Shown piece after piece: positions 21,305 to 37,014 of a stretch of 64,000 nt of DNA; within the stretch, counting starts at the first letter, position 1; each line of letters begins with the position of its first letter. The stretch is from a virus. Its lineage: Duplodnaviria; Caudoviricetes. Under the pieces are notes generated by a model. The model did no database searches. It was not told where the DNA came from and saw only the letters and a program-made list of their open reading frames with translations. The DNA is taken from IMG/VR virus record IMGVR_UViG_3300009031_000368, positions 64,001 through 128,000 of that record; one strand, given 5' to 3'. Position numbers and translations under genes: made by a program.

Positions 21305-23329
21305 CTATTCATCAAATCCGAATATTATTGGTTGCTGGAATGGCTCACGCTTTGTTCTATTGGATGGATTTCGCACACCGATGACCCATGAATCATCTTC
21401 ATACTCTTCACGGCTAAATGAACCAGAGATGATGCCCATCGGACGAGATGGAGGATTTTCGACAAGACTGCAAACGACACCGGATGCCGATACGGCAAGG
21501 TCATCGTGTCCTTCTGTTCCATCAATATTAAGATTCGGATGATCAATGATTCCAGTGTTTGGATCCAGTTCAAGGTTTATCAATTCTCTCCTTAATGGAG
21601 AATATGGATAAACGATCAATCTGTCTTCATAGATGGCTGCTTTAATCCGTTCCAGTGCTCTCGACTTACCAGATTCACCGCTAATCAGCGAATGCTTGAT
21701 GCCACGTTCCTCAAACTTTTGCCGCGTTTCTAAATGATGATAACTATCCGTTGTGCAATGAACGATATTGAATCCATGTGCCTTAAGGTCATATATGAGA
21801 GCGCGCAATGCTCCCGGTGTAATCTCACCATTCTTTGGTGCAATTACTTGCATGATGAAGTCAATATAGATCTCTGGCGAATATTCGATATACTCCGTTC
21901 CATCTGGCGCAAGCTTGACGACATCGATCCATCTTGAAATATGCCCAACACAGATGCCGGCCGGATCTTGTCGGCCAGCTGAAAGGTCGATATGGGCATG
22001 ACGTGGTGCATTTGGATTAATGTGGGGGATGTAAACCTTTTCCTTATATCCGCCTTTTAATCTACGCTCAGCCTGACGGCAAAGTAGGTGCCATTCAAAG
22101 TCGCCCGATTCACCACAAGCCCATGTTTCAACGGTGAATGGATGATATAGCCCTTGTTTGAAACAGTTGTCGATCTTGTCGCGCCGGCCAATAAAGGTCT
22201 TTGTCGGCATCGTGCTGACACCAGCATGGTCGCGGATTGCAAGATCTAGATCGTTTTCAAAGACCTGTCGTAGGAATGGATGGTCTGGAACAGGAACTAT
22301 TTTGGCAAATCTATCCGGCCCTGATATTTCTTTCCTTACATGCTCTACTTCATCATTCGTTAGTATTCTATTTGAACACTGGTCGTCGCCGACCAATACG
22401 TAAAATCTCTCCTTGGGATATTGCTCCGGTATAAGTTCCCATTTTGCATACTCTTTTACCATTATTTTGTTTTTAGAATCTCTCGCAGCCTTCACTCTTT
22501 CATCCGTGAATGATCCAACGACATTCTTGGATGAAGCAAGTATCATGATCCCAGGTTTAATACCCGTTCCAGTAAATCGGCTTCTGATACGAGACAATAA
22601 TGCGGTATATTGTTGGTAGGCGACTCCTTTGTCTGCACGGGCTGATCGTTTACCTTCATAAAAGTTAGCTTCGTCAAGAGCTCCTCCGTAAACGTTTCTA
22701 CCAAGTAAGCCTGGTGATCCTGGAGATGCTGTAATGATTGATATATTTTTGGGGAAGTCTATAACGCCAGCTGATACCTTGTATCCGAGCTGTTTAAAGT
22801 ACGGAGATGATTCCAAGTTTGCAATTATGTCTGCAAAAATACCGCGTCGAACCTGTTGTAAGTCGACCGACAATACACCAAATGCAATGTTTTTACCATC
22901 CATCAATCCAAGCTGCCGTTGTGGATTTGCCAGGCAATATATCTGATACACCATGTAAGGAATTGCAAGCGCGCAGTATGTGCTTTTCCCTGTCCCGACA
23001 CCGCCAGATATAATTGCTTCATAGTAGTCGCCTTCAAACATTTCAATCAAATTTTCGATTAATGGTTTGTATGTTCCGGTGCATACTTCACCAAAATAAT
23101 ATGGATCTGAATAAAACGTCTTAGGCGACACCGGCCGTTCAGAATAATGGACTGATTCCAATACATCCAGGATTTCAGATTCACCACCATTATCTAGCTC
23201 GGCAAGTGCCTGCTCCAATACTTCGCGCTCTTCCGGCGAACATGAAGCAATCATGGCCTGAAGCTCTTCAAATTCCTCTTCCGGCGTTTTTACAGATATA
23301 ATCTTACCGTTAAAATCGATTAGATGCAT
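21305..23329 (-). CDS. Terminase large subunit
   Basis: Walker A GGVGTGKS, Walker B ALDEANF, nuclease AHIDLS and GHDDLAVS; adjacent to the portal. Confidence 0.93.
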   Translation of the reverse strand: MHLIDFNGKIISVKTPEEEFEELQAMIASCSPEEREVLEQALAELDNGGESEILDVLESVHYSERPVSPKTFYSDPYYFGEVCTGTYKPLIENLIEMFEGDYYEAIISGGVGTGKSTYCALAIPYMVYQIYCLANPQRQLGLMDGKNIAFGVLSVDLQQVRRGIFADIIANLESSPYFKQLGYKVSAGVIDFPKNISIITASPGSPGLLGRNVYGGALDEANFYEGKRSARADKGVAYQQYTALLSRIRSRFTGTGIKPGIMILASSKNVVGSFTDERVKAARDSKNKIMVKEYAKWELIPEQYPKERFYVLVGDDQCSNRILTNDEVEHVRKEISGPDRFAKIVPVPDHPFLRQVFENDLDLAIRDHAGVSTMPTKTFIGRRDKIDNCFKQGLYHPFTVETWACGESGDFEWHLLCRQAERRLKGGYKEKVYIPHINPNAPRHAHIDLSAGRQDPAGICVGHISRWIDVVKLAPDGTEYIEYSPEIYIDFIMQVIAPKNGEITPGALRALIYDLKAHGFNIVHCTTDSYHHLETRQKFEERGIKHSLISGESGKSRALERIKAAIYEDRLIVYPYSPLRRELINLELDPNTGIIDHPNLNIDGTEGHDDLAVSASGVVCSLVENPPSRPMGIISGSFSREEYEDDSWVIGVRNPSNRTKREPFQQPIIFGFDE

Positions 23330-25516: not shown

Positions 25517-26044
25517 TTAAATTGATGGTTTGATTGAATCGGTGACTTTATCGGCTTGAAGAACTGTATCTTGAACTTCAATATCTGATTCAACAGTAAC
25601 TACAATCATCCGGACGCCCGGATTTGTTCCATATCTCTTACTGATTGTAATATTTACGACCTGATTATCATCCTTAATGACTACACCTTTTATTGCGTCC
25701 TCGACAAGTTTACAAATATTAGAGCAGTCAGGAGTAACTATTGGTAAAAGCTCATGTTTTAGCGCGGCCTCGTGCTTCTTTTTAGAAAATGAAGTCGGTA
25801 TAGGGAATGTCGCTTCTATCCGGATATGAACCGCGCCAACATATGGTGGTCGTACCGTCTCACCGTTCTGGTACGCTGTTGCCGCATAGAATCTCACTTC
25901 AGCCTCACGGCTCACCGTTTCTGGATCCGCGTATGTTGACACAAATTTTCCGACACGTCTAAATTTTGGAGACTTCTTTCCTGCCGGTTTCCCTGGAACA
26001 AAAATATCAATCAATGTTTGCTGCAACTGATGGCACTCCTTCAA
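25517..26044 (-). CDS. rusA: RusA-family Holliday junction resolvase
   Basis: VPGKPAGKKSP, VTPDCSNICKLVEDAIKGVVIKDDNQVV; the first Asp of the usual PDxDN motif appears as PDCSN. Confidence 0.8.
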   Translation of the reverse strand: MKECHQLQQTLIDIFVPGKPAGKKSPKFRRVGKFVSTYADPETVSREAEVRFYAATAYQNGETVRPPYVGAVHIRIEATFPIPTSFSKKKHEAALKHELLPIVTPDCSNICKLVEDAIKGVVIKDDNQVVNITISKRYGTNPGVRMIVVTVESDIEVQDTVLQADKVTDSIKPSI

Positions 26045-26417
26045 TCTCTATATCGCAATGTGTTATGATGAAACCATCATCGATAACGTTATCTGTTGTG
26101 GAACCATATCCGGATAACCTGGCGCTGATTGAATATATGGGCTGTCGTTGTTCAAGAATCTGATGTAAAATATTTCCTTGTGGTGTCGCAACAATTTCGA
26201 TATCTGCGACCACTATATCATCGTCATCAACACACATCTCCGTTACACGGTGTGATACTTCGCCCAGCTTCGAGTCTGACGCTGAACCAGTATAGATACG
26301 ACCATACATTGGAAATATTGCCCGGCCGATGGCACGTTCAACGACTTCTCTGGGATATATGTTGCCATTACGGGTTGGCTGGCCGGTTTTCATTCCTTTC
26401 ACATTACATATCTTCAT
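26007..26417 (-). CDS. Truncated paralog of the prohead protease; catalytic ELDHP motif absent
   Basis: GQPTRNGNIYP, VSHRVTEM, IVATPQGNIL and ISARLSGYGST align to 13475..16801. Confidence 0.85.
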   Translation of the reverse strand: MKICNVKGMKTGQPTRNGNIYPREVVERAIGRAIFPMYGRIYTGSASDSKLGEVSHRVTEMCVDDDDIVVADIEIVATPQGNILHQILEQRQPIYSISARLSGYGSTTDNVIDDGFIITHCDIEIEGVPSVAANID

Positions 26418-26941: not shown

Positions 26942-27107
26942 TTCTCCTCTTAATCGCCATTTTTAAGTTGTTAAGATAATGCTTCGCCTGAACATCTGAC
27001 AGACTACCAACATCTATAAAGAATGCCAATCGTTCTGTAACCGGCATACGCTTCATTCTGACTTTTCCATCTGTTCCAATCGTCTTACAATATTTCATAA
27101 CTGTCAT
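26925..27107 (-). CDS. 60-aa paralog of an internal portal segment
   Basis: ERLAFFIDVGS is identical (11/11) to the portal; SDVQAKHYLNNLK versus PESEARQYINRLK. Confidence 0.85.
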   Translation of the reverse strand: MTVMKYCKTIGTDGKVRMKRMPVTERLAFFIDVGSLSDVQAKHYLNNLKMAIKRRNDNGR

Positions 27108-27790
27108 CCCTTTCCATATCTGGCTTCAATCGCCAATCTGCCTAGCTCAACTTCATCATCTGACATCATCACGGTATCTGATTCACCAATCTCGTTATAG
27201 GTTATTGGAACCGGTGGGCTAAAAACATATCCGGCATCCCGTTTAGCTTCCGCCTCTACTTTTGACTGCAACTGTTTCAACAGATCTTTAATGGTCTCTG
27301 TTGGTATTTCTTTCATCGCTGCTTCAATAGCCGCTTGCGCCGATGCCATCTCTTCATCGGTAAACCGTCTGGCGCTATTGGTGCCCATCCGGCTCTCAAC
27401 CGTATACCATTTTGGTGTATCGGTTAAGCTGTCACCGGTCGTTGTTTCAGACGTTGTGCCATCTTCAAAGAATGACGCATCATCGATCATTGCACCATAC
27501 TTATGGATGCCGCGTAACGGTTGAAAAGAACATATCGGCGTTGCAACGATTCTAACATGACTGATCTGACTACATCCATGGATGCATCCACCTGGAATAA
27601 ATATTGGCCATGCACTGGTCTGTGTCGTTATCGGACATCCGCACCAACAATTACCTACGTTTTTACTCTCCATCACACTCGTCCTCTGATTGATCGCAAC
27701 ATTCAAATGTGTGACAGATGCTGTTGACATAAATATTACTTTTGCCTTTTTCTGTAATGATGTAAAAGCTTGGGATAGTCTTTTGTTCAA
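27104..27790 (-). CDS. Protein containing a paralogous fragment of the TerL ATPase (Walker B region)
   Basis: LRGIHKYGAMIDDASFFE versus TerL LLGRNVYGGALDEANFYE; RFTDEEMASAQ versus SFTDERVKAAR. Confidence 0.65.
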   Translation of the reverse strand: MNKRLSQAFTSLQKKAKVIFMSTASVTHLNVAINQRTSVMESKNVGNCWCGCPITTQTSAWPIFIPGGCIHGCSQISHVRIVATPICSFQPLRGIHKYGAMIDDASFFEDGTTSETTTGDSLTDTPKWYTVESRMGTNSARRFTDEEMASAQAAIEAAMKEIPTETIKDLLKQLQSKVEAEAKRDAGYVFSPPVPITYNEIGESDTVMMSDDEVELGRLAIEARYGKG

Positions 27791-31013: not shown

Positions 31014-32255
31014 TTAACGCATCCTTTCGATCTTTAAACCACCATCAGTTTCGATAGACTGTAGAAACATTTTAGCATGACGGATGGCGTTTGTAACGAA
31101 TGGTGATACATTGTTGTAATCATTTGTATCGACAATCACCACATCATATTGATGTGGTGGATCAAATCCTTCATGACTATCTTTCGTCGCTTTGATGCAA
31201 TCAATCTGTAACAGCCTATCCATCACCTGACTATTATCAAATCGAAGGAACGGTCTCGGATATAGCGGCTTAGCGAAATCAAGTAATGTCGATGCCCGCT
31301 GATTGCCAATATACAAAATTCTCATGTCTGAATTACTTTGTGTTGATCGGAAGTAACAATACCACAACCCGGCCAACATCATCGCGGTTGATTTTCCAGT
31401 CGCCCTGCTACCAGTTACCAGATATTTTCCATCCGTGGCAGTTCCGGTACGACATGCAAACATACCATCCAAAACCTGGTAAGTATTGTAACGTTCGTTT
31501 CTTCGGTCCATTCCCCATATTGAACCAAGATATTCGACCAGAGTCTTTGGCTTTTTATTATCAACCGCTGGCCCATGCACACCATAGACGGCCAATTGCT
31601 GCTGTGACAGATTATCAAAATTCCTGGATATCGACAAATCGCCATCGGTTGAATTATAAACGATAACGCTACACCAGTTATTTCCAATCCTTGATTGCAT
31701 TCTGGAACGCATGTCATTATATGACAATGCATCTTGTAAGGAACCTCTGACATCAAAAGTTAATGCATCCCAACAAGTCATCACGACATTACGTCCTAGT
31801 GTCATACATTGAAATGTAGAACTACCAACTGGACGGACTGAGATAGCCACGCCAATTGTATTAAACACAATATCACTATTTAATCTAATATTTCCATTCA
31901 ATCCAGCTGAGTCAAGTACATGACATAATGCTTTTGCCAGAGATCGCCCTTCGTTAGTGTAATAAAGGATCGTAATCGGCGCATTAGGTGCCAGTCCAAT
32001 CATCTGTCGATACCGTTCACCACCAATCTCCTGTATTTGTTTAATATATCCCGCAATCAATTGCATTGTGGCAGTCGTCTTACCGGAACCTGGACGGCCT
32101 GAAATTCTAATGGTGCCTGTTGGAAATACATCGGGCAGCTTGCCTAATGGAATGGACTTTCCTGTTTCCTCTTCCATTACAAACTGTTTGAGAACCTCAA
32201 TCGCATCTGTTACTTCTTTTCGGTTACCGGTATCTACCTCAATTGACAGTTTCAT
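31014..32255 (-). CDS. Tandem degenerate P-loop protein paralogous to the TerL ATPase domain
   Basis: ISGRPGSGKTT, RQMIGLAPN, LGRNVVMTCWDALTF and MRSRMQSRIG versus TerL ISGGVGTGKST, RQLGLMDG, LGRNVYGGALDEANF and LLSRIRSRFTG; second P-loop VTGSRATGKST. Confidence 0.7.
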   Translation of the reverse strand: MKLSIEVDTGNRKEVTDAIEVLKQFVMEEETGKSIPLGKLPDVFPTGTIRISGRPGSGKTTATMQLIAGYIKQIQEIGGERYRQMIGLAPNAPITILYYTNEGRSLAKALCHVLDSAGLNGNIRLNSDIVFNTIGVAISVRPVGSSTFQCMTLGRNVVMTCWDALTFDVRGSLQDALSYNDMRSRMQSRIGNNWCSVIVYNSTDGDLSISRNFDNLSQQQLAVYGVHGPAVDNKKPKTLVEYLGSIWGMDRRNERYNTYQVLDGMFACRTGTATDGKYLVTGSRATGKSTAMMLAGLWYCYFRSTQSNSDMRILYIGNQRASTLLDFAKPLYPRPFLRFDNSQVMDRLLQIDCIKATKDSHEGFDPPHQYDVVIVDTNDYNNVSPFVTNAIRHAKMFLQSIETDGGLKIERMR

Positions 32256-32271
32256 ACATTTACCTTTCTAT

Positions 32272-33149: not shown

Positions 33150-33995
33150 TTAATTAGCCCATGATAAATCTAACCATCGCAGTATGTTACAAACTTGACC
33201 AGTATCGCAATTTACTACACTATATCCAATTGATTTCTTTCCACACCATGGTTTCCATCTTTCGACCGGCCCACGATTGCCTGACACATAACAAACGGCA
33301 TCAAATATTCCAATCTTTTCCGCTGCTATACGATCAGTTAGTTCATACAGTCGTTCGTAAAACATACGTTCTGCTTCATCGGGCGACACTGGAATAATTG
33401 TTTCCTTCAACGGCTCCACGTTGATGTTCCATTTCAATCCGCCATCCTTCATGAGATCGCGCTTTTCGGTCACCAATAACACATTGTCGGCATACTTGAG
33501 ATACCATGGTTCAACGTCGGGCAATCCGAGCCATCTCCAAGCTGTTGACATCCCGCGCTTTTCCACATCCCGGTATGGTTTCATTTCCGGCATATATTTC
33601 AATGGCCGGACGATATCGGACAGATATGCTTCCATGGTCTCATGAAACAATCCATACATGCCGCCGATTCGACATTCCAATTCACTGCAACAGTGACTTC
33701 TCAATATCGATTCGATCAATCGTGAAACTCTAACCGAGTGTTCGGCAACCGAGTAGAATTTGAGACAATGACCGCAAAACCGGCAAAGCTTACTCAGTGA
33801 TGCCGCAATATCTTGTACGCTGAAATCCTCAACCCGCACATCTAGTGGATAAAACTTTCGCGCCGAATATGTTTGCGACCAGTCACCATGACGTGGTTCA
33901 CTGTTGGCTTGAAGTCCATTTATGTCAGCAATGGTCTGCCTATCTATTTCAGACATCATGTTCCATAATGATTCATTGTAACCGTCATGTATCAT
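33150..33995 (-). CDS. HD-superfamily phosphohydrolase (YfbR-like; HD appears as HE)
   Basis: SKLCRFCGH, YSVAEHSV, LFHETMEAYLSDI, KYADNVLLVTE. Confidence 0.75.
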   Translation of the reverse strand: MIHDGYNESLWNMMSEIDRQTIADINGLQANSEPRHGDWSQTYSARKFYPLDVRVEDFSVQDIAASLSKLCRFCGHCLKFYSVAEHSVRVSRLIESILRSHCCSELECRIGGMYGLFHETMEAYLSDIVRPLKYMPEMKPYRDVEKRGMSTAWRWLGLPDVEPWYLKYADNVLLVTEKRDLMKDGGLKWNINVEPLKETIIPVSPDEAERMFYERLYELTDRIAAEKIGIFDAVCYVSGNRGPVERWKPWCGKKSIGYSVVNCDTGQVCNILRWLDLSWAN

Positions 33996-36387: not shown

Positions 36388-37014
36388 TTATATCTGTGTT
36401 CTGTCATTCAAGGTAAAACGGTATTCAACATTGATCCGTGTAACAAATTGTGGAATTCCGATATGATTGGCCAAATTATGCTTTATGCATTCTGTCGCAT
36501 CAAGGTGCCAATCGGCATGGCCTTTTTCATGGATGATTTCCTTGAAATATGACGGCTTATGTCCACAATTCAATGCCATCCGTTCCATCAATACGTTGTT
36601 TAGATTATTGGCATGGTCGGCTGTTGCGTTAAATTCCGTAACCTTACTAAAATCTCCAGTTAACACCTCATGAATCATACAGTATCCGCTTGGTGCAATA
36701 TATCTAACTTGCCCGCAACTAAACAGTACCGCACCACACGACATCGCCTTTCCCGTTACAATGGTCGCGACTGGAATCTTTGAAGCCTTAACGATATCCA
36801 TCATGGCAAAAAGGCTATGGATGATTCCACCATAGCTATCTATCACGACTGGAATTACCGGTTGACCTGTTTGATGCGCGGTAGAAAAACTGGCTGCGAA
36901 TTCCTTGACCGATTTTTCATTGAAATCATTTACCCAAACCGTAACCGGCAGACTCAAGATATCGGCCGGTTGCTTAATGTTGAGCCTTGGATCTATATCG
37001 AAGTAATTCAGCAT
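36388..37014 (-). CDS. clpP: ClpP-like protease
   Basis: VIDSYGG, GKAMSCGAVLFSCG (Ser), CMIHEV (His), DWHLDATECIKHNLANHI. Confidence 0.85.
   Translation of the reverse strand: MLNYFDIDPRLNIKQPADILSLPVTVWVNDFNEKSVKEFAASFSTAHQTGQPVIPVVIDSYGGIIHSLFAMMDIVKASKIPVATIVTGKAMSCGAVLFSCGQVRYIAPSGYCMIHEVLTGDFSKVTEFNATADHANNLNNVLMERMALNCGHKPSYFKEIIHEKGHADWHLDATECIKHNLANHIGIPQFVTRINVEYRFTLNDRTQI

Follow-up and report, generated by a model that had tools for sequence, protein, structure and literature searches.

The window analysed here, a stretch of 64,000 nucleotides from the 232-kb genome of an uncultured groundwater jumbo phage, contains an open reading frame (P0001, 31014..32255; 413 amino acids plus stop codon) for an orphan protein predicted to have two P-loop domains. 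The first of these was confirmed to be genuinely, though very distantly, homologous to the ATPase domain found in the phage's own family of large terminases (TerL), and it has lost the catalytic glutamate next to the Walker B aspartate. With a probability of roughly 0.55, we favour the reading that P0001, a genuine gene of the phage, encodes a nucleotide-binding protein without catalytic activity, that its domain 1 derives from a TerL ATPase, and that its function is based on binding. P0001 with its domains and motifs, the flanking spacer, the adjacent resolvase gene and the TerL gene are all located on the minus strand of the window.

A genuine phage gene without detectable relatives

P0001 is a genuine phage gene, as judged from its native codon usage, its ribosome-binding site, the tight coupling to its neighbours and the identical copies found on other contigs. 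Its in-frame codon-usage score of 0.194 (0.002 and 0.022 in other frames) is native-like when set beside the phage genes as a whole (0.237 ± 0.064). The stop codon of a Dam methyltransferase gene is separated from P0001 by a spacer of only 16 nt (32256..32271), which holds an AAAGG ribosome-binding-like site 7–8 nt upstream of the ATG, and at the other end the GTG start codon of a resolvase gene comes immediately after the P0001 stop codon; from this layout of the sequence P0001 appears to be translationally coupled to both neighbours. The identical gene is present on six contigs from several groundwater samples, all copies found being the same, and contigs from four groundwater/soil runs agreed to 100% with the window wherever they overlapped it. 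Among the public runs listed as containing the sequence, none was an RNA run. The surroundings form a tight DNA-metabolism operon with RecA, the resolvase and a Cas4-like exonuclease, and no anti-defence island is recognisable there, whereas the TerL counterpart is positioned in the head module. Scans for promoters and terminators yielded no more sites than expected by chance.

The protein is an orphan. In a protein search of 5.8 billion clusters and 1.84 billion representatives the sole genuine match was P0001 itself, tblastn and megablast searches of 50,697 phage records returned no match, and no relatives were found in an IMG/VR search or in 22 related virus records. The one further hit, P0003, was ruled out as a repeat protein with summed chance matches. 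Searches with phmmer, using each half of the protein against all ORFs of the genome, recovered no paralog. Matches in Pfam and PHROGs stayed at the level of the Walker A motif; the classical Pfam terminase models miss even the true TerL of this phage. Sequence searches for solved structures detected none for P0001 or for its TerL family, and AlphaFold2 run without an alignment gave pLDDT values of 37.3 for the whole protein and 37.6 for residues 232–413, so that neither model was usable.

Domain 1 is a diverged homologue of the TerL ATPase domain

The N-terminal domain (residues 21–229; 31569..32195) was identified by hhalign, shuffling controls and an ESM model as a diverged and degenerate paralog of the TerL packaging-ATPase domain. 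The true large terminase of the phage, P0002 (674 amino acids; 21305..23329), which was recognised by phrog_2 at 5.7e-8 and by a precomputed PF27249 assignment and has 71 related loci, served as reference. A TerL ATPase profile of 39–40 sequences matched residues 1–230 of P0001 with an hhalign probability of 88% (P 3e-6) over 144–200 aligned columns, and the score of the real sequence (45.9) compares with 24.7 ± 2.1, maximum 33.5, for 100 shuffles of the domain that preserved Walker A (z = 10). When a TerL ATPase HMM was run over the 1286 six-frame ORFs of the genome, P0001 ranked next after TerL itself, and among the genome's 20 P-loop ORFs it obtained a TerL-profile score of 46.4, followed by RecA with 28.5. 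The similarity of domain 1 to TerL lies far beyond chance and beyond a merely shared P-loop. All ten top structure rows for its ESM model were TerL families (TM 0.55–0.62), the best being clusters of PF27249, the family of the phage's own TerL, and BLASTP aligned domain 1 with P0032, a TerL-ATPase paralog from a related phage, over 197 residues (E 0.007). Plain BLASTP of P0001 against the phage TerL matched the Walker A motifs alone (E 0.2), and a shallow profile of four TerL sequences matched just the second P-loop region (P 0.035).

Compared with the TerL family of the phage (PF27249/MJ0330_N-type), domain 1 aligns across the entire ATPase domain with similar motif spacing, at an identity of 17–25% to all TerLs of the family and about 22% overall; the member closest to it is a TerL other than the phage's own. 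Ahead of the ATPase core, P0001 and TerL are unrelated.

The motifs by which the first-pass annotation had aligned this half of the protein to the TerL ATPase are indeed present and colinear with it: besides Walker A these are RQMIGL (starting at residue 83), LGRNV (153) and SRMQSR (184), with W-D-A at 162–164 and near-equal spacing throughout. Walker A (GRPGSGKT, residues 53–60; 32076..32099) is intact and aligns to TerL G109–S116. The segment LGRNV...W-D-A-L-T-F (residues 153–167; 31755..31799) comprises the TerL 'LG.N' motif and Walker B. Its Asp163 corresponds to TerL D219, and the catalytic E220, like D219 invariant in 40 relatives, is replaced by Ala164, which bears out the earlier observation that the DEA of Walker B had become WDA. 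SRMQSR (residues 184–189; 31689..31706) matches the conserved R247/S250/R251 motif of TerL, and VYNST (residues 199–203; 31647..31661) occupies the position of the coupling (C) motif, where the invariant S266–S267 pair reads N201–S202, the first serine having changed to Asn and the second being kept. A further change affects TerL N222, which is Thr in P0001. TerL has 36 columns with a conservation of 80% or more, and domain 1 retains 20 of them (56%). What the two proteins have in common is Walker A, LG.N, the Walker B Asp with the next Phe and the R..SR motif, whereas domain 1 has lost the catalytic Glu along with the coupling motif's first Ser.

These residues suggest how the domain may behave. 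Among ASCE ATPases, a Walker B without its glutamate is the classic trap configuration. Domain 1 keeps the residues that hold ATP and Mg (the Lys and Thr of Walker A and the Asp of Walker B), and since the catalytic Glu and the first coupling Ser are lost, it would be expected to bind ATP without hydrolysing it or coupling it to DNA movement, much like a natural Walker-B 'trap' mutant. In some ASCE ATPases the catalytic Glu is positioned elsewhere, so that its loss beside Walker B is no strict proof of lost hydrolysis. ATP binding, the missing hydrolysis and any partner of P0001 are all matters that we infer. As to its origin, the domain is a paralog of the ATPase of the phage's TerL family that may be either ancient or fast-evolving.

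Domain 2 resembles a second P-loop domain and not a nuclease

TerL carries a C-terminal RNase H/RuvC-like nuclease domain, whereas in that place P0001 has a domain (residues 236–413; 31017..31550) that hhalign and an ESM model indicate to be a second P-loop alpha/beta domain. A profile of the C-terminal, nuclease half of TerL gave an hhalign probability of 0.1–0.2% against P0001, i.e., no nuclease similarity, in agreement with the initial reading of the protein as lacking this domain. Walker A of domain 2 (GSRATGKS, residues 282–289; 31389..31412) is intact. VVIVDT (residues 372–377; 31125..31142), for which a strand was predicted in both AlphaFold2 models (of low pLDDT, 37.3 and 37.6), is a putative Walker B in which Asp376 is followed by Thr and not by Glu. 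Read from these motifs, domain 2 would be a P-loop domain of the ASCE type as well, its Walker A being complete and the Asp of its Walker B standing without Glu.

The first-pass annotation had further proposed that this second half repeats the N-terminus of TerL, a repeat that could not be demonstrated. Against the TerL ATPase profile, domain 2 scored 28.1 in hhalign (probability 16%, P 0.0015), a score that was equalled in 3 of 100 shuffles and is about that of decoys such as RecA (28.5) and other ATPases of the same genome; HMM shuffles gave 6 of 3000. The default alignment was confined to 30 columns around the P-loop, and BLASTP of one half of P0001 against the other revealed no internal duplication (E 12). 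The protein had accordingly been described as a 'double degenerate' terminase ATPase, and of this description the degenerate TerL-type domain 1 stands, while domain 2 shows no clear TerL-specific signal. The ESM Atlas model of domain 2, of medium quality, resembles domain 1 of SF2 helicases (DEAD/ResIII) with TM 0.55–0.62. Structural affinity to an unrelated P-loop family, named earlier as the observation that would speak against a terminase, was thus found in domain 2 only, domain 1 leading to TerL families. Helicase families in Pfam and PHROGs did not match P0001 beyond the P-loop. Judged by helicase motifs (DExx motif II, motif VI Arg in domain 2), P0001 does not qualify as an SF1/SF2 helicase, its domain 2 reading D-T-N-D. 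Helicase-domain-1-like and TerL-like families are both candidates for its affiliation.

The resolvase neighbour and other TerL-ATPase look-alikes

The gene downstream of P0001 (30621..31013) encodes a Holliday junction resolvase of the D...ExK type with conserved D57/E66/K68; it matches phrog_2002 at 3.4e-20 and is the only phrog_2002 gene of the genome. At three related loci RecA is followed by the resolvase and the Cas4-like exonuclease without a P0001-like gene between them, so P0001 is no fixed part of this module and its position is possibly incidental.

A comparable case is P0032, a paralog consisting of the TerL ATPase only, in a related 216-kb phage (G005:C1:122913-123827; L087:3872-4996). 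Like P0001 it is nuclease-less, catalytically degenerate and directly abuts a Holliday junction resolvase: in G005 it overlaps a phrog_1770 gene, the sole match when that genome was searched with three resolvase families (phrog_2002, phrog_1770 and phrog_140). Its similarity to TerL is much more evident (E 4e-20; 39–43% identity with TerLs of the subclade to which it belongs), and it is a separate and independent duplication, much younger than that of P0001. The residues lost are different ones, Walker A Lys being changed to Arg and Walker B Asp to Phe, it has a hydrophobic C-terminal tail where P0001 has the second P-loop domain, and its resolvase belongs to another family and is located upstream. 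The adjacency of dead TerL-ATPase paralogs to resolvases thus comprises two cases that were spotted post hoc.

The published vs.8 protein of T4 (phrog_1488), which is small and is encoded by T4-type phages, resembles P0001 in being a stand-alone terminase-ATPase-like paralog without a nuclease domain. Its gene adjoins the DNA nuclease gene denV, as that of P0001 adjoins the resolvase. However, vs.8 keeps the D-E of Walker B and is a single domain of about 180–220 amino acids, while P0001 reads D-A and has 413 amino acids in two domains. The vs.8 family profile aligned with P0001 in 21–28 columns around Walker A and nothing more, and phrog_1488 was absent among its PHROG matches. Since the profile matches at the P-loops only, vs.8 is an analogue of P0001 from a different family, and we rejected it as a bridge from P0001 to a known family.

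Possible functions of P0001

The evidence on domain organisation and gene context bears on two further readings, both of which we regard as quite improbable. P0001 could be an active two-domain, helicase- or translocase-like motor of the recombination module that uses unconventional catalytic residues and might power branch migration on behalf of the neighbouring resolvase. Tandem RecA/ASCE-like domains are a helicase layout, the model of domain 2 resembles SF2 domain 1, both Walker A motifs are perfect, and RecA, the resolvase and the Cas4-like exonuclease are neighbours. But neither Walker B Asp is followed by Glu, domain 1 has a damaged coupling motif, matches to helicase families in Pfam and PHROGs end at the P-loop, and in helicases Walker A is confined to domain 1, whereas P0001 has one in both domains. 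With as little conviction we consider that the gene might be a decaying duplicate without function, left over from a terminase that was duplicated or acquired long ago. Its orphan status and absence from the 22 related phage records, the loss of catalytic residues and the low-confidence fold predictions (pLDDT 37.3 and 37.6) would fit such decay; yet the 413-codon frame is intact, its codon usage is native, it sits in a compact operon with apparent coupling to both neighbours, and at about 22% identity it has preserved 56% of the conserved columns besides two glycine-rich Walker A loops that are perfect.

Other readings start from the resemblance to the packaging motor. It is conceivable, if unlikely, that P0001 is a dominant-negative or regulatory terminase mimic, whose ATP-locked domain enters the motor or caps it (at the TerL ring, the portal or TerS) and thereby delays the phage's own DNA packaging or poisons the motor of a co-infecting relative. 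The trap configuration of Walker B, the homology to the phage's own TerL family and a protease-derived mini-gene nearby are in line with this; but an identity of 17–25% to every TerL of the family makes conserved subunit interfaces doubtful, and the segment N-terminal to that core is not that of TerL. We attach very little weight to the proposal of the first-pass annotation that the protein is a decoy or sponge for terminase-sensing defence (Avs1-3, Upx), in which the dead ATPase would occupy the sensor and block detection of TerL or oligomerisation on it. The TerL-like domain 1 with its retained ATP-site residues would suit such a role, EcAvs2 touches the ATPase domain of TerL and its bound ATP (PMC13601566), most core head proteins are sensed by Avs families (PMC13581612), and the genome has a diverged piece of a head gene, a protease-like ORF at 26007..26417. 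However, Avs and Upx become active through target binding: the TerL ATPase domain by itself activates Upx, as do catalytic-Asp mutants (PMC13601566), and Ksap2, which is weakly like the TerL ATPase, activates KpAvs2 (PMC11564622). Given this precedent, a TerL look-alike would be expected to trigger the sensors and not to soak them up, unless it blocked oligomerisation. In addition, ORF55 and ORF83, the anti-Avs proteins known so far, are no terminase mimics but a ligase and an Smf-like protein of unrelated folds, domain 2 is not demonstrably TerL-like, and the gene is in a DNA-metabolism operon. Anti-Avs proteins and defence decoys as such are not marked by any sequence signature. Our analysis produced no evidence for a sponge, and the published cases point the opposite way, to TerL-ATPase-like proteins as triggers of Avs2 and Upx.

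We therefore return to P0001 as a non-catalytic nucleotide-binding protein, which may have descended from the packaging motor and act through binding, not catalysis, as an adaptor or mimic that depends on ATP. The best-supported lead to a partner is the DNA-branch-processing machinery, because the stop codon of P0001 abuts the start of the resolvase gene and the independently arisen P0032 overlaps a resolvase of another family. Together, P0001 and the resolvase would rebuild in two chains the layout of the terminase, an ATPase plus a RuvC-like nuclease.

Stand-alone terminase-ATPase look-alikes are beginning to emerge, as exemplified by T4 vs.8, and P0001 adds to them a statistically secure case from an uncultured jumbo phage, in which the ATP-holding residues are kept and the catalytic ones lost, as well as an unusual fusion of such a look-alike to a second P-loop domain. 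Avs2, Upx and other sensors of this type react to the ATPase domain of the terminase, so that paralogs like P0001 may be triggers, escapes or modulators of these systems. The recurring neighbourhood of a Holliday junction resolvase offers a concrete and cheaply testable hypothesis. It is a speculative idea, with the odds clearly against it, that phages repeatedly copy the motor domain of their terminase, kill its catalysis and pair it with a junction-cutting nuclease, or that the ATP-locked copy serves as a terminase mimic in conflicts between phage and host or between phages. If the pairing were real, the dead copy and the resolvase would constitute a two-chain, terminase-like machine that delivers the resolvase to branched or packaging DNA.

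Genomic context

P0001, a protein of 413 codons (ATG to TAA, 31014..32255 of the window, minus strand), lies in a 231.7 kb IMG/VR virus record with a completeness estimate of 76%; the window spans positions 64001-128000 of it, and the same DNA is present in several groundwater metagenomes. Its codon-usage score is 0.194 in frame versus 0.002 and 0.022 out of frame, near that of the long genes of this phage used as reference (0.237 ± 0.064), and on this compositional ground P0001 is therefore treated as a real gene. The gene is letter-identical in six contigs and four further runs. It is also identical in the groundwater contig L079, where the upstream phosphatase gene encodes 275 aa rather than 281 aa (window 33150..33995) and the spacing is shifted; this contig comes from a variant of the phage that differs by a small indel.

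Between P0001 and the Dam-type methyltransferase gene that precedes it lie 16 nt, which include an AAAGG site; on the other side, the gene for a Holliday junction resolvase of 130 aa (phrog_2002, 3.4e-20) begins with GTG immediately after the TAA of P0001. Further neighbors on the same strand encode a RecA/UvsX recombinase, an HD-type dNMP phosphatase, an ASCH protein and a Cas4-like exonuclease; scans for promoters and terminators around P0001 gave no signal above chance. Three related loci carry RecA, resolvase and Cas4-like exonuclease in this order with nothing P0001-like between them, so that P0001, the methyltransferase and the phosphatase together are a lineage-specific insertion into this recombination module. 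The recombination genes near RecA also surround a 208-aa ClpP/S49-like ORF (36388..37014, minus strand) that bears the label of a head maturation protease (phrog_94, 7e-21); the head module itself is distant. The RecA homolog of a related phage (L002:1235-3559) is 774 aa long and contains an insertion with intein-like ends (Cys ... His-Asn-Cys), and its gene and that of the resolvase flank an HNH endonuclease gene.

A terminase ATPase domain that has lost its catalytic glutamate

BLASTP of P0001 against P0002, the true large terminase (TerL) of the phage (21305..23329, minus strand), recovered the Walker A motifs only (E 0.2), and Pfam and PHROGs yielded only P-loop-level matches. The true TerL, which is of the PF27249 type, is likewise missed by the classical Pfam terminase models. 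We gathered 71 TerL relatives from IMG/VR and made a 40-sequence alignment of the ATPase domain. In a search with a TerL ATPase HMM through the full six-frame set of 1286 ORFs, P0001 ranked next after TerL itself (1.4e-89), with an E-value of 0.23 genome-wide and of 1.7e-4 if counted as a single test; the aligned region runs through LGRNV, WDALTF and YNDMRSRMQSR. Profile comparison aligned residues 21-229 with the whole TerL ATPase domain (probability 88%, P 3e-6, 200 aligned columns), and repeating it with hhalign on the TerL ATPase alignment gave the same result. The score of 45.9 compares with 24.7 ± 2.1 (maximum 33.5) for 100 shuffles in which Walker A was left in place; in a decoy control with 20 P-loop-bearing genome ORFs, the best after TerL and P0001 was RecA at 28.5. 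In an ESM Atlas model of residues 1-232, terminase families fill the ten nearest structure rows (TM 0.55-0.62), the best of them being PF27249 clusters. P0001 is also colinear over 197 residues (BLASTP, E 0.007) with P0032, which comes from a different phage and is clearly a paralog of the TerL ATPase (see below). The first half of P0001 is a terminase ATPase domain, as the first-pass annotation had proposed, and this identity is secure. Its identity to the 40 TerLs is 17-25%, and the TerL of this phage, at 22.7%, does not rank first among them; the domain is an old or fast-evolving copy rather than a recent duplicate.

Of 36 family columns conserved at 80% or more, 20 are kept in P0001. The Walker A Gly, Gly and Lys, the L-G of the LG.N motif, the Walker B Asp (TerL D219, P0001 D163), F223 (F167) and R247, S250 and R251 (R185, S188 and R189) are retained; the invariant E220 (A164), N222 (T166) and the invariant S266 (N201) are lost. 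ASCE ATPases that lack the Glu beside Walker B still bind ATP but no longer hydrolyse it; by analogy, the same would hold for this domain.

A second P-loop domain and no nuclease

When the C-terminal halves of 38 TerLs were combined into a profile, P0001 matched it with a probability of only 0.1-0.2%, in agreement with the earlier remark that a nuclease domain is missing. Residues 236-413 carry instead a perfect Walker A (GSRATGKS), followed ∼85 residues later by a hydrophobic strand, VVIVD, that ends in Asp and is succeeded by Thr; the predicted alpha/beta pattern is consistent with a P-loop domain. That this half repeats the TerL N-terminus had also been claimed. Against the TerL ATPase profile this half scores weakly (28.1, probability 16%). 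The alignment comprises only 30 columns around the P-loop at default settings, and the score was equalled by 3 of 100 shuffles and is no better than those of RecA and further ATPases encoded by this phage. Comparison of the two halves with each other gave no match. The ESM model of the second half most resembles the first domain of DEAD/ResIII helicases (TM 0.55-0.62), and in the feature search the terminase and Gp16 families rank only further below. Since the TerL match stays at decoy level, a double terminase ATPase is not established; the data show a TerL-type ATPase joined to a second ASCE P-loop domain.

Distribution and other terminase-like ORFs

Relatives of P0001 were found neither among 5.8 billion protein clusters, nor in an exhaustive phmmer run against 1.84 billion representatives, nor in the phage collection, IMG/VR or 22 virus records that share the TerL family or the resolvase of this phage, and by these searches it appears to be an orphan. 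A single extra phmmer match was a repeat-protein artefact.

The third-best genome ORF against the TerL ATPase HMM (E 0.82; hhalign score weak, 25.5) is a 228-aa ORF at 27104..27790 (minus strand) with a TerL-like RG-Walker B piece (PLRG...GAMIDDASFF...ESRMG). A 136-aa ORF at 26007..26417 (minus strand) shows similarity to a PHROG of head maturation proteases (7e-9), and directly downstream of it, beside these head-gene mini-ORFs, lies the second resolvase of this phage, of the RusA type (25517..26044, minus strand; phrog_140, 2.7e-39). Many TerL relatives have lengths of 850-1160 aa (L015, L017, L023, L028, L030, L031, L037-L039, L041, L053, L058, L062, L064, L066), their ATPase match being split at or near Walker A (profile positions ∼41-59) by insertions of ∼150-380 aa, probably inteins in the P-loop. 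In three complete genomes of ∼120-132 kb (G011, G012 and G013, around L070, L071 and L072) the TerL match extends over two to four consecutive ORFs, with an ATPase, a middle and a nuclease part, owing either to a split terminase or to a frameshift.

Look-alikes and possible role

Searching 20 related records with the TerL alignment revealed a second TerL-like ORF in G005, a phage of 216 kb and 99% completeness. Its product, P0032 (374 aa; L087:3872-4996 = G005:C1:122913-123827), matches TerL (E 4e-20) over the ATPase domain and linker only, without the nuclease. Its Walker A reads G-R-T, not G-K-T (Lys to Arg), its Walker B Asp is replaced by Phe, and it ends in a hydrophobic tail. It lies ∼9 kb from the true TerL of G005 and overlaps the end of a Holliday junction resolvase gene (L087:3384-3896) of another family, phrog_1770, than that beside P0001; each genome has one gene of the respective family. 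As P0032 shares 39-43% identity with the TerLs of its own subclade and in other genomes matches the true TerL only, it represents a duplication separate from P0001. The published TerL-ATPase-like protein T4 vs.8 matches phrog_1488 and, weakly, the terminase PHROG. It keeps D-E, whereas D163 of P0001 is followed by A164, and a vs.8 profile built from 15 sequences aligns with P0001 at the P-loops only; vs.8 is an analog from a different family. It is located 27 nt downstream of denV, encoding endonuclease V (L080:9254-10356; T4 64253-65355), and is another terminase-ATPase look-alike adjoining a DNA nuclease gene.

P0001 had been suggested to act as a sponge for the Avs sensors of terminase. Yet the sensor Upx is activated by the TerL ATPase domain alone, and catalytic-Asp mutants also activate it (PMC13601566); Ksap2, a weak TerL-ATPase look-alike, activates KpAvs2 (PMC11564622). 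P0001 would therefore be expected to trigger such sensors, not soak them up, unless its tandem build blocked their assembly. Of the anti-Avs proteins known so far, one is a ligase and the other is Smf-like. As things stand, a sponge is unlikely; like the second-half repeat, it is a part of the first-pass annotation that is not supported, while the TerL ATPase half and the lack of a nuclease are confirmed.

P0001 belongs with the nuclease-less terminase-ATPase paralogs, a kind already known, and is best read, from its sequence, as a non-catalytic, ATP-binding adaptor or mimic. The two or three cases of TerL-ATPase look-alikes next to nuclease genes were spotted after the fact and are a lead only, but they suggest that a disabled terminase motor domain might work with a stand-alone DNA-structure nuclease, a pair that would echo the ATPase-plus-RuvC-like layout of TerL. 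T4 needs its endonuclease VII to remove branched DNA in the course of packaging, and this enzyme associates with the portal. With P0001 read as such an adaptor or mimic, the link to the resolvase would be the first thing to look at for its role.
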